Origin: Candidatus Aenigmatarchaeota archaeon
GTDB taxonomy: Archaea; Aenigmatarchaeota; Aenigmatarchaeia; GW2011-AR5
Length of the DNA stretch: 64,000 bases
Reading direction: 5' to 3'
Assembly (NCBI GenBank): GCA_016198685.1
Contig: JACQID010000004.1
Coordinates: forward strand, 273,874 to 337,873
Positions within the stretch are counted from its first letter, which is position 1; every line of letters starts with the position of its first letter. The notes below the pieces were generated by a model. That model was not told where the DNA came from. It saw nothing but the letters and a program-made list of their open reading frames with translations, and did no database searches. The translations under genes were made by a program, and so were the position numbers. Positions 1 through 38,365 of this stretch are shown here, in pieces.

Positions 1-3000
1 CTTGAGTGCAATGCCGGATACCTCGCTTCGCGACCATGTTGCCCTGTCGTATTTATACACGGTAATCTCGGGTGAGCCGGAAGTATAAGAAGTGTTAAGC
101 GTTACCTGCTGCCCGGAAAGTGTTCCTTGGGCATATATTGTAATGTTGTCCGAAGACCCATAAGTCCATTTTTCTGTCCAAGCACTGGGAGTAAAGTCCC
201 TTACATCAAACCATACATAAGTTCGCTTGACGTCGCTGCTCTCGTTTATCCTTATGGCGATCTGGTAAAACCCGTTCGGCAAACTCTGGCTCAGGCTCAC
301 GTTTGCCGCTGCGCTATACTTGTTGTTTGAAGTCGTGGCATCTGACCACAACGAACTTGAAACCGGTGCTCCTGTCATTGAATTTATCACCGATTCAATA
401 TTGGTTTCGGTACTGCCTGTATATGCGCGTCCGCTTGAAGGATCTGTTATCGTGCAACTTATGTTAACTGAAACTCCTGACTGTATGTCTCCCCATGAAA
501 CCCTGTTGCAGCTCGCAAAGAAGGTTTCTATCTTGAATCCCCATTCGGCTTTTTCCGTGCCAAGGGAATTATTGAATTCTGCGGAGACAAAATAATCTCC
601 CGAATCCCATGTCCCGCCTGCCGCCCCATCGTCGAGTGGTTTCAAGACGAAAGTGCCAACGCCGGGTATTAGAATATTGCCCGTGCCCTTTATTGTCCCG
701 TCTTTGCTTGTGACATTGTAATCTACTTTTTCCTGAAGCACGGTCTCCCCTGATGAAAAGTCAAACTTGGCTACTTTTACGGATTTTAGCGTCACGTTGT
801 AATATGATGTCTGCGAATTATCTCCTACTGAAACGCCAGACGAGCCTCCTAATCCTGAAGTTTCTCCAAGATCCTGTATGTATCCAATAGACCAATTCGA
901 AACATTTCCTTCGGAGTTTCCAGGCCCTCTCATTCCTAACTTGTAGTATTTGCCTGTCGTGCTATTGACGCAGAAATATCTTGTGTGCGTTGCATTGTAA
1001 GAGCCTGCTAATGTCATGTTCGTCGTGTTTCTGTATCCCTGATTGCTATACACAGGCGCAAAACCCGGACCGGTGCACTTGAAGCCCTGGAAAGGCCCGC
1101 CACTATCATAGTCGCTAAGTATCTTTTCTCCTGAAACGCATTTGCTGAAAACGGAATTCATGCATCCCATGAAAGCTATGGTCGAATTCTTTGTGACGCC
1201 CCCGCTCGTAAGGTTAACCGCAGAGAGGTTCGCCATATCTATATCTGACACGTTGCTCGTTGTCATGTTGATGTCCGGGAAAGTATCCCCGTCAAGATCA
1301 AATCCTCGGCCGGCTACAACCACTCCTTCCTCCAATATGGCTTCAGGAGTTCCGATAGGGCCGCCTCCGCCACCGCAAGTCGTATCTTCAGGAGGACAAC
1401 CACCACCGAATTGGTTTCTCATCCATGAAGGGTCGGAAGAGATAGTCGCTGTGAAATTTATGTTGTCGCTTCTACCATATCTCCAGTTGCTGCTGCTTAT
1501 TTCGGCAAAGAAGTTTCTTACCATGAAGAAACCTTCAACCTGGTCCGTAACCGTCCCGTTTGTAACATCAAAAACGATGAGATACTGGCCGTTGCTCCAT
1601 CCTCCAGTAGGCGGCTCAAGGGTCATAAGCACTCTTCCGGAAGCGTCTGTAGTTCCTTGGGTGACCGTCTTATCATATGTTAATTCGGATGGAGGGAAGC
1701 TCGCAAAGCTTAATATTTTTTTCAGCGAAACCGTAAGGTTGGCTGCCGGCCTGTAATTCACTACATTGAACACGTCGATCTTCATGCTCACGTTCTCATT
1801 TTTGCCTATTGTGAAGTCGGGCACGTTAGTTTCTGGGTTTACCGGCATTCCAAATCCTTCGAATATTTTTGACATGAAGAATCCTTCGCCGCTGTCTATT
1901 CCGCCCGAAAAGTTCACAATGACTTTAACTATGTAGAAGCCGGATTTCCAGCCTGTTGCAGGCGCGGATATGACCGTGCTGTTCGAACCTCCGTCTATTC
2001 GTATTGTCGTGTTAGTAGAATCTATCTTCTTGGGCGGGAATATGAATTCACCTGCATTCCCTCCATAAAAAACGCCGCTTATCGTAAGCGTGCCTGTCCT
2101 ATTTGCCGTCTGCCATGTTCCAGGTTCTCTTACAGTCACTGAGACATTTACAGCCGTGTTCGGGCCTACGTTCCAGTTTTGGAAGCTATTGAAACCCAAC
2201 GAAGAAGCATCGGTCGTTGTGTTTGCACGAACCGTGACATCCATGAAGTATTTCCTTACGTCGAAGAAGCCCTGGGCACGATCGGTTTTGTTGTCCGACG
2301 TTGAAAGATTGAAAAATGCGATATAAAATCCGCCAGTCCAGTTCTGGCCGTTGACGCTCGATTTCATGCTGATTGCGCAACTGCCTGAAGAATCTGTAAC
2401 GCAATTCGTCAGTGTTACGGATGAAGTCCAGTCTTCTTCGGTATTAAGATTGATTATTTTAGTAACTGTTACTTGTGCTCCCTGTACTGATGAACCGCCG
2501 CCTATGCCAAACAACCCGCCTTCAACGCCTCTTGGGCCGCCTCCAAATGATCCCTTGGACATGAAGCCTTCATTGCCCTGCTTCTCGCTTGCCGTTGTAA
2601 CGCTTACATTGAGCTGAACAGTGTCATTGGGTCTGAAGAACCAGAAAAATCCCGGTCCCGGACCGCCTGCGCCCGGTGTAGGAGTAGTGCTTCCAGGGCT
2701 TCCCGCGCTTACAGGGCGTATAGTTACATCCAGCGACCTGACTTTGAAATTGCCGTCAACAGAAACCGAGCCTACAGGCGTATCTGTCTGGGCTTTTACA
2801 AAATAATCCCCGCCTTTTACAGGAGCCGTCAAATTAATGTATGTATAATTTCCAGACGTGTATGTTGCATTCGTCCCGAATAATGAAGTCTTGTCATTTC
2901 CTTCACTATCTGCAATCGAATAACTTGAAATGCCCGTGACGGGTACTGTGCCAGAAACATTCTGCGCAGAGAACCTAAGGACTATTTTCTTGCCTGCAAC

Positions 3001-4483: not shown

Positions 4484-4554
4484 GCCGGGTTGACAGAGCG
4501 GCCATGTGCTCGCCTGCAAAGCGAGATAGAGGCGTTCAACTCGCCTACCCGGCT
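4484..4554 (+). tRNA. tRNA-Cys(GCA), intronless
   Basis: Acceptor GCCGGGT/ACCCGGC, anticodon arm CTCGC-CTGCAAA-GCGAG, T arm AGGCG-TTCAACT-CGCCT, U73 discriminator. Confidence 0.95.
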
Positions 4555-8822: not shown

Positions 8823-8991
8823 GAAAATCCTGACCTGCGCCCGCCGGGATTCGCACGGAGGACATTCTTCCTCCGGCGCAGTGAAGACTTCGTCTTCCCT
8901 GTGAACCTTCGGTTCTGTTGAAGTGGCGCCTTCAACATCCAGAGAAGCGAAGCTTGTCCTCGGAAAATCCCAGTATGCGCCCGCCGGGATT
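8823..8991. repeat. 140-bp structured element bounded by a duplication of the tRNA-Gly 3' end
   Basis: TGCGCCCGCCGGGATT at 8836-8851 and 8976-8991; GAAAATCC 5 nt before each copy; several hairpins in between. Confidence 0.8.
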
Positions 8992-9085
8992 TGAACCCGG
9001 ATCAACAGCTTTCTTCGTTTTCCGCCGGCGCTTTTTCTAAAAGGGCCGTTGGAAGGCTGTGGTCCTGCCGTTAGACTACAGGCGC
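8976..9085 (-). tRNA. tRNA-Gly(TCC) with 39-nt canonical 37/38 intron (9011-9049)
   Basis: GCGCCTG/CGGGCGC acceptor, ACAGC-CTTCCA|intron|A-GCTGT, T-loop TTCAAAT; CTTC pairs with intron GAAG giving a BHB. Confidence 0.93.
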
Positions 9086-22902: not shown

Positions 22903-22943
22903 TACAGGATATATTCTTCGTGATATTTAAATGCTATGAAAGA

Positions 22944-23046
22944 TGGGCTGGGGCAGATTTGAACTGCCGGCCGCCCGATTATCAGTCGGGTGCTCCAACC
23001 AGACTAAGCTTTGCTGACTGCCGTCAATCGCGGCAATTACCAGCCC
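22944..23046 (-). tRNA. tRNA-Ile(GAT) with 28-nt non-canonical intron at 8/9 (23011-23038)
   Basis: GGGCTGG/CCAGCCC acceptor, CCCGA-CTGATAA-TCGGG anticodon arm, GGCAG-TTCAAAT-CTGCC T arm; 28 extra nt between U8 and the D stem. Confidence 0.9.
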
Positions 23047-23269
23047 TTAATTTCCAACCCATGCATAGCCGTATATACCTAAACCAGCTATACTTTACAT
23101 TCTTAGGTGCGATTACGTTAAAAACCTTGTTGTATGCTCCAATTGCCCAAGTCATAGAGTTGACACAAACATAGCATGTGAAGAAATCAAAAGTGAAATA
23201 ATGACTGCATATTTTCCAAGGTTTTTCTTGGTGTAAACTCCGAACATTTCTTTTCCCAAAAGAAAGGGA

Positions 23270-23431
23270 TGGACTGGTCGGGATTTGAACCCGAAGCCTC
23301 TTGCATTCCGAACCGCGAAACCCATGGTTTCTTCAGTTGTAGGCTGTTCCGGATTCCTGTTGGAATCGATAACTATGCCGCAGCCAGCGTGCGGATGCCA
23401 TGCAAGCGATCTTCCGTTGATCTACCAGCCC
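23270..23431 (-). tRNA. tRNA-Ala(GGC) with 90-nt insertion at 37/38 (23306-23395)
   Basis: GGGCTGG/CCAGTCC acceptor with G3-U70, CTTGC-ATGGCA|insert|T-GCAAG, TTCAAAT T-loop. Confidence 0.88.
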
Positions 23432-27944: not shown

Positions 27945-28056
27945 TGGACTGGTCGGGATTTGAACCCGAAGCCTCTACCTCTCATCGAAGTTTTTGGTCA
28001 GGCTTTTGCCAAAAAACTTGTGCGAAGGTAGCGATCTTCCGTTGATCTACCAGCCC
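27945..28056 (-). tRNA. tRNA-Ala(CGC) with 40-nt 37/38 intron (27981-28020)
   Basis: Same body as tRNA-Ala(GGC); CTACC-TTCGCA|intron|A-GGTAG; intron stem AAGTTTTT/AAAAACTT. Confidence 0.92.
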
Positions 28057-38259: not shown

Positions 38260-38365
38260 GGGCCTGTAGCTCAGCCTGGCAGAGCATGAAACGCAATCCG
38301 TTTCATACGCAAATAGCACCTGCCTCTTAAGCAGGGAGTCGCGAGTTCAAATCTCGTCGGGCCCA
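38260..38365 (+). tRNA. tRNA-Lys(CTT) with 32-nt D-arm intron, best placed at 22/23 (38283-38314)
   Basis: GGGCCTG/CGGGCCC, CCTGC-CTCTTAA-GCAGG, GCGAG-TTCAAAT-CTCGT; insert hairpin ATGAAACG/CGTTTCAT. Confidence 0.9.

Follow-up and report, generated by a model that had tools for sequence, protein, structure and literature searches.

An intron between U8 and A9 of a tRNA-Ile(GAU) gene in a DPANN archaeon

Can an archaeal tRNA gene be interrupted directly behind base 8, where the acceptor stem gives way to the D arm, and still yield a functional tRNA? The question is raised by a tRNA-Ile(GAU) gene in a 64,000-nucleotide stretch of DNA from a Candidatus Aenigmatarchaeota archaeon (hereafter the window), in which 28 nt separate U8 from A9. 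Non-canonical introns with relaxed splice motifs, even in the acceptor stem at position 3/4, are established for Archaea (PMC4090602, PMC3239211), and the intron positions named in one review are 3/4, 20/21, 22/23, 25/26, 29/30, 30/31, 45/46, 53/54, 56/57, 59/60 “etc.” (PMC4090602). Positions 8/9 and 9/10 are both unnamed in the reviews of archaeal tRNA introns used for comparison (8/9: PMC4090602). We confirm here that the insert in tRNA-Ile(GAU) is a real intron, at a rare position and of a well-known kind, and we consider it very probable that the gene is a functional, single-copy tRNA-Ile(GAU) gene with a protein-spliced archaeal intron of 28 nt between U8 and A9.

The gene and its splice motif

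The gene lies on the minus strand of the window and runs from 23046 to 22944 (contig 6 of the host assembly, 296817-296919); its parts are collected in Table 1. The first-pass annotation of this DNA had placed a 28-nt insert at 8/9 of tRNA-Ile(GAU) and held that the exact tRNA is restored if both strands are cut behind the second bulge base, and both statements are borne out. Such cuts remove exactly 28 nt and leave a perfect cloverleaf of 75 nt: all 7 bp of the acceptor stem form perfectly, the D, anticodon and T arms are standard, and the discriminator is A73. ARAGORN run on the spliced product returns tRNA-Ile(gat) of 75 bases with all four stems intact.

Table 1. Features of the tRNA-Ile(GAU) gene in window coordinates; the arrow marks a predicted cut and negative numbers count upstream from G1.
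Feature	Window position	Strand	Remark
5' exon, G1 to U8 (GGGCUGGU; GGGCUGG-U): acceptor 5' strand plus U8	23039..23046	-	Pairs perfectly with CCAGCCC, 22945-22951
28-nt intron	23011..23038	-	Cloverleaf restored on removal
3' exon, A9 to A73; CCA not encoded	22944..23010	-	Rfam tRNA model, and ARAGORN on the spliced product
Anticodon GAU	22983-22981	-	Inside the 3' exon
Central helix H, exon strand G3 C4 U5 G6	23041..23044	-	4/4 Watson-Crick with 23013-23016; in MFE fold of first 45 nt
Central helix H', intron strand CAGC	23013..23016	-	Letters identical to acceptor positions 67-70
5' splice-site bulge G7, U8 ↓ A; predicted cut after U8	23038..23040	-	3-nt bulge closed by H and the intron helix
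Intron hairpin h', AUUGCCG (23037-23031) / CGGCAGU (23023-23017)	23017..23037	-	7 bp, 7-nt loop region
3' splice site A, A ↓ A9; predicted cut before A9	23010..23012	-	No closing outer helix
Probable TATA box GTATATAC (best TATA-like element), -32 to -25 from G1	23071..23078	-	Distance as in the genome's other tRNA genes
Imperfect tandem copy GGGUUGGAAAUUAA of the exon 1/intron start GGGCUGGUAAUUGC	23047..23060	-	10/14 identical; role conjectural
T-rich UCUUUC directly after A73, possible transcription stop	22938..22943	-	From reading of the sequence

The splice motif was judged at the intron boundary against the strict archaeal geometry, in which a central helix of 4 bp is flanked by bulges of 3 nt, each cut after its second base. 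In the 8/9 register, G3-G6 of the acceptor strand pair with precursor bases C31-C34 (intron CAGC) in four out of four Watson-Crick pairs, the 7 bp of the intron helix include one G·U, and the bulges are GUA on the 5' side and AAA on the 3' side, so placed that the register is exact. The outer helix has 0 bp, with G2 facing G10. The intron does not have the strict hBHBh' form, in which both bulges are closed by flanking helices; it has the relaxed HBh' form, with H of 4 bp, the 5' bulge closed, h' of 7 bp and the 3' cut 2 nt past H'. This is the relaxed bulge-helix-bulge drawn in the first-pass annotation: every pairing listed there is present and, since there is no outer helix, the word relaxed was correctly chosen. 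The 9/10 register, tried on the same gene, gives the same product but 0/4 central pairs. It is unlikely that the splice geometry arose by chance: when the exons were held fixed and the intron was shuffled, 4/4 central pairs were joined by an intron helix of 7 bp or more in 2 of 200,000 trials, and by one of 3 bp or more in 239 of 200,000.

The MFE fold of the first 45 nt of the precursor is exactly the splice motif, and that of the full-length transcript is the cloverleaf, with the acceptor stem closed and the intron hairpin protruding. Over the full length the cloverleaf is more stable than the splice conformer by 2.7 kcal/mol, and the equilibrium probability of the splice helix is about 0.1%. 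In these modelled folds the splice motif and the acceptor stem both require G3-G6, and because the two helices share these four bases the acceptor stem must open for splicing. Because the first 45 nt fold into the motif by themselves, the motif can form before the 3' strand is transcribed.

Introns and splicing enzymes of the host genome

The host is a DPANN-type archaeon with a genome of 0.93 Mb in 8 contigs (45% G+C, 93.7% complete). Its tRNA genes are heavily interrupted, many of them by introns at 37/38, and D-loop introns were placed by hand in the genes for Val-UAC, Val-CAC, Glu-UUC, Glu-CUC, Gln-CUG and Asn-GUU. The figures for the introns of host tRNAs come from hand-set boundaries combined with the strict geometry check, which replaced an automated census (every BHB-like pair, with ARAGORN run on the spliced product) that was too permissive and yielded dozens of chance motifs per gene. 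By this measure the intron of Thr-GGU, located after nt 28, has H 4/4, h' of 4 and an outer helix of 1, the D-loop intron of Gln-CUG has H 3/4, h' of 10 and an outer helix of 0, the introns of Val-CAC and Glu-UUC have H 3/4 and h' of 7 each, and those of Val-UAC and Glu-CUC have H 4/4. The relaxed class of the Ile intron is also found in Thr-GGU, Gln-CUG and Val-CAC, and most of the genome's other introns share its 3' site, AA↓A.

Both a splicing endonuclease and the ligase RtcB (568 bits) are encoded by the host. A single EndA gene was found (203 aa; contig 3, 36208-36816 on the minus strand, which is 1474-2085 on the minus strand of locus L058). Its product contains both Pfam domains, PF01974 at 97 bits and PF02778, and aligns best with the M. 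jannaschii homotetramer (1a79, E 2.9e-31). A second EndA-like match (C6:121531) turned out to be a transglutaminase-like protein and not a beta subunit. Because only one EndA gene was found, the host enzyme is probably a homotetramer and not an alpha2-beta2 enzyme. The alignment to the Nanoarchaeum equitans alpha subunit (PDB 3IEY chain A) runs gap-free through a Lys-rich insert, GVQLKKGPKSAKEH, which sits between the catalytic Tyr and His and at which M. jannaschii EndA has a gap of 6 residues. This insert is the “L3” loop that has been linked in DPANN to disrupted tRNA genes (PMC5829648). The host resembles N. equitans and the DPANN carriers of “L3” EndAs in this loop and in its many disrupted tRNA genes; it differs from N. 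equitans in having a single EndA gene and an Ala at the position of the third catalytic residue. This Ala aligns with the catalytic Lys156 of M. jannaschii and is followed one position later by Arg or Lys (motif AHNIRA[R/K]M), and judged from its sequence the enzyme does not have textbook chemistry, given the Ala at the Lys156 position. The insert is that of the broad-specificity N. equitans enzyme, and the host EndA may be able to cut relaxed motifs. An enzyme of strict specificity would not cut the 3' site of the Ile intron, which has no closing outer helix.

Among the EndAs examined in the order (relatives L072-L093), Ala at the Lys156 position with Arg or Lys directly after it is common to all except that of the same-genus genome G002, which has Asn at the position after the Lys156 site and an in-frame TAA; Tyr, His and the Lys-rich loop are strictly kept in those examined. 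An order-level relative (L094; G030 contig 2, 63973-64830) has an extra EndA-like ORF of 398 aa, whose active-site region is similar to that of the three-unit ARMAN-2 enzyme (PDB 4FZ2). The host genome also contains a candidate archaeal RNase P RNA, at 43 bits and below the Rfam threshold.

The acceptor/D-arm junction in other genomes

In several of its features the Ile intron is like the non-canonical archaeal introns already described (PMC4090602, PMC4033280). It is short and defined by RNA shape, half of its 4-bp central helix belongs to the exon, its bulges are of 3 nt with predicted cuts after the second bulge base, its removal would fall to EndA and the joining of its exons to RtcB, and like the relaxed members of that group it is without one flanking helix. 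It is unlike them in its site, 8/9, and in its host, which belongs to DPANN and not to the Thermoproteales or Thaumarchaeota. The acceptor-stem introns at 3/4 in some tRNAs of Thermoproteales (Sugahara et al. 2008, via PMC4090602) likewise have a very short 5' exon and a motif that takes acceptor-stem bases, so that the stem is unpaired during cutting; in the present case, however, the 8-nt exon is the whole 5' strand plus U8 and the intron lies at the acceptor/D-arm junction. What the Ile case adds is a splice site at 8/9 with a central helix made from the acceptor stem. Because the helix is made in this way, splicing and acceptor-stem formation are mutually exclusive, and the 8-nt exon must stay in place for ligation.

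The first-pass annotation had called an intron at 8/9 at least very rare. This is in keeping with the absence of the position from those named in PMC4090602, and it has to be qualified by a conserved intron one base further on, at 9/10, in the same tRNA of ten Micrarchaeota MAGs. In a scan of one genome per prokaryotic species, ten ‘Candidatus Micrarchaeota/Micrarchaeia’ MAGs (L060-L066 and L068-L070) were found to have a tRNA-Ile(GAU) gene with an intron of about 26-31 nt at 9/10 in addition to an intron at 37/38, and the 371 genomes of the window's phylum include none of the ten. A further match of the pattern scan, L067 from a Methanobacteriota MAG, was discarded as a false positive, being a CAU tRNA that has no intron and is preceded by GGGC through chance. 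The Micrarchaeota motif consists of a 5' bulge U8-A9↓N, a helix of C4-G7 with ACGG that includes a conserved G7·A mismatch, an intron helix of 10 bp, a 3' bulge AA↓G10 and an outer helix of 3 bp (G1-G3 with C11-U13), which together make a full hBHBh'. Across the ten introns 93% of the pair cells hold standard pairs, as against 16-45% in slid controls, and two pairs have changed on both sides. We found no published description of this intron.

The Micrarchaeota intron agrees with that of the window in the tRNA and the junction that it interrupts, in its similar size, in a central helix taken from the acceptor 5' strand, in a long hairpin and in AA at its 3' end. It differs in its position, in its outer helix and hence full hBHBh', in its constant company of a 37/38 intron and in the phylum of its host. 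Since the Ile genes of both DPANN phyla have introns there, the acceptor/D-arm junction can serve as an intron site in either phylum; the retention of a 9/10 intron with a full hBHBh' in ten Micrarchaeota MAGs suggests that the site can be spliced in DPANN. The two introns may owe their presence to common descent, transfer or convergence.

Within the phylum of the window, 14 distinct tRNA-Ile(GAU) genes from the family and the order were compared, and in all of them base 8 abuts the D arm directly (0/14 with an 8/9 insert). These genes are intronless, carry an intron at 37/38 (including those of two same-genus genomes) or at about 30/31 (12 nt or about 50 nt), or are permuted at 30/31. A search for GGGCNNGT followed by 15-45 nt and the Ile D arm had the genome of the window as its sole match in 371 genomes of the phylum, a result that depends on the D-arm sequence used; a metagenome scan with GGGCTGGT gave 0 matches, and Logan contigs of the same population, which is present in runs SRR12113383, SRR12113384, SRR12113390 and SRR12113430, were reached via neighbouring proteins and stop short of the intron. 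In the same-genus genomes G001 and G003, which are 81-82% complete, no tRNA-Ile was found. Neither the 370 other genomes of the phylum nor the metagenome scan provided an orthologue of the 8/9 intron. Among the genomes sampled, the sequences indicate that the 8/9 intron is specific to the host lineage. In the host genome, a search for copies of the intron elsewhere, as expected of a mobile intron, gave nothing beyond chance matches of 12-14 nt, and a search of the 223-nt spacer to tRNA-Ala for an older tRNA-Ile relic gave no match better than 8 nt. One archaeal family therewith presents the same tRNA-Ile gene in intronless form, with introns at 30/31, 37/38 or 8/9, and permuted at 30/31, which makes a compact natural series for the study of tRNA gene disruption.

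The circularly permuted tRNA-Ile(GAU) genes come from three other genera of the family (L031, ~1480-1600, plus strand; L032, ~1420-1545, minus strand; L036, ~1450-1540, minus strand). Their order is the 3' half (A31-A73), a linker of 4-44 nt and the 5' half (G1-G30), and leader and trailer form a BHB at 30/31, set by hand, with H' GAUG or GGUG and the 3' bulge AA↓A31. The leader/trailer helices differ in each genome (CACAA/UUGUG, GCUUG/CAAGC and CUCACUC/GAGUGAG), and the relative L029 has a 12-nt intron at 30/31, the same site as the permutation. Permuted archaeal tRNAs have been reported from Thermofilum pendens (PMC3218864). In the same-genus genomes G002 and G004 an Ala tRNA gene and the Ile gene are divergent neighbours, and the Ala/Ile tRNA locus appears to have been rearranged within the genus.

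Proposed splicing pathway, alternatives and detection

From the sequence, the fold geometry, the enzyme genes and the comparable introns we infer the following order of events for the Ile precursor. The precursor would fold so that acceptor bases G3-G6 pair with the intron CAGC next to a 3-nt bulge and the 7-bp hairpin, with the 3' site in the AAA stretch, and EndA, acting presumably as a homotetramer, would cut after U8 and before A9. The 8-nt 5' exon would then pair, or re-pair, with the 3' acceptor strand through 7 G/C-rich bp, which would be followed by ligation of U8 to A9 by RtcB and, after this ligation, by the addition of CCA. The splice motif may form before transcription has reached the 3' strand, or else EndA might capture a minor conformer.

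The position of the TATA box is that of the genome at large: a clear TATA box precedes 18 other host tRNA genes, and in 13 of these its first base falls at -35 to -31. As the distance is typical of the genome, expression of the Ile gene and a start near G1 are supported, and the near-fixed distance from the mature 5' end suggests that leaders are very short or absent for the approximately 40 tRNA genes. Between the TATA box and G1 (-14 to -1) lies the imperfect copy of the exon 1/intron start, of which GGGUUGG (23054-23060; -14 to -8) pairs 7/7 with the 3' acceptor strand CCAGCCC. The near-copy is probably outside the transcript because the TATA position puts the start near G1. The chance of such a tandem near-copy was estimated by hand at about 0.2-0.5%, and the 14-nt repeat may be a footprint of the origin of the intron, a functional spare strand, or chance.

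A role for the near-copy is offered by the alternative that the transcript includes a leader of 14 nt or more, that the near-copy holds the 3' acceptor strand and that the splice conformer is the ground state until excision, with RNase P trimming the leader later. Such a reading would draw on the 7/7 pairing of GGGUUGG, for which chance within 40 nt was estimated by hand at about 0.5%, on the RNase P RNA candidate in the host genome and on the MFE, which changes to that of the splice conformer once the leader measures 14 nt or more (-46.4 vs -42.6 kcal/mol); in the leader-bearing fold the 3' strand is bound by the near-copy, and C11-U16 by AUUAAG (-5 to +1). However, 28% of shuffled leaders switch the MFE to the splice conformer too, which makes the leader test non-discriminating as support for a spare strand, and a TATA box at -32 to -25, modal for the host tRNAs, implies a start near G1 and a copy outside the transcript. 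Moreover, no such copy is seen by eye in the 40 nt upstream of the Micrarchaeota genes, and the 8/9 intron has no orthologue in which conservation of the copy could show. We therefore regard a transcribed leader of this kind as unlikely, and the same holds for the conjecture that the intron behind base 8 comes with a built-in helper, whereby the transcribed near-copy would both hold the 3' acceptor strand and add an outer helix with the D arm. If this conjecture were true, the near-copy would be an RNA-chaperoning leader for an otherwise awkward splice site.

It could also be that the intron is real and that recognition takes place in the cloverleaf conformer, with cuts in the 9/10 register, the 3' one between A9 and G10, to give the same mature sequence, the acceptor stem itself serving as the helix beside the 5' site (U8, A, then the hairpin). 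Both registers are possible since intron and exon 2 each begin with A, the cloverleaf with its protruding hairpin is the full-length MFE, and 9/10 is the register used by the Micrarchaeota introns. What counts against it is that the 3' site would face no helix of 4 bp (H 0/4), that the 5' “bulge” would consist of 2 nt at a three-way junction, and that the intron CAGC, the exact complement of G3-G6 at 2 nt before the cut, would be left unexplained, and for these reasons we think cutting at 9/10 quite improbable.

That the gene is a pseudogene, or keeps its insert as an extra hairpin while AUU and AUC are read by another tRNA, would agree with the absence of an orthologous intron from the relatives and with the approximately 6% of the genome that is missing, but we hold it to be very improbable given that all stems of the spliced product are intact, that the promoter is at the right distance, that the splice geometry is far beyond chance, that both enzymes and numerous similar introns are present in the host, that no other GAU tRNA was found, and that, were 28 nt to stay between U8 and A9, the tRNA core would lose its tertiary contacts at U8-A14 and at position 9.

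For protein splicing at 8/9, the reading that we prefer, the copy number of the gene is of consequence, as the first-pass annotation had named an intronless tRNA-Ile(GAU) elsewhere, together with transcripts that retain the insert, as the mark of a pseudogene. A search of the 93.7%-complete genome for GAU anticodon arms in tRNA context and for sequence-similar genes turned up neither such a gene nor any second tRNA-Ile(GAU); a second GAU gene could lie in the unassembled part. It had further been expected that tRNA finders may miss the interrupted gene, and this holds for ARAGORN, which reports it neither in the window nor in the genome, even with the intron search on, and finds nothing in the unspliced sequence. 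The match of the Rfam tRNA model is partial, covering model positions 9-63 only, at 40.9 bits. The genome would accordingly be scored as lacking tRNA-Ile(GAU), a false “missing tRNA-Ile”, and annotation may likewise overlook the tRNA-Ile genes that carry the 9/10 intron in the ten Micrarchaeota MAGs. DPANN genomes have already been suspected of hiding disrupted tRNA genes (PMC5829648), and calls of missing tRNAs feed into statements of MAG quality and into claims of a reduced translation machinery in DPANN.

Several of the window's remaining tRNA genes are interrupted as well. On the minus strand, Ala(GGC) (23270-23431), 224 nt upstream of the Ile gene on the same strand, has an intron of about 90 nt, Ala(CGC) (27945-28056) one of 40 nt and Gly(UCC) (8976-9085) one of 39 nt; the plus strand carries Cys(GCA) (4484-4554) and Lys(CUU) (38260-38365). 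The Lys(CUU) gene has a 32-nt insert near 26/27 for which no equivalent register fits the strict 3-4-3 geometry, the best having H 3/4 and no flanking helices. The two Ala tRNA genes of the window are mislabelled by ARAGORN as Pro and Ser.
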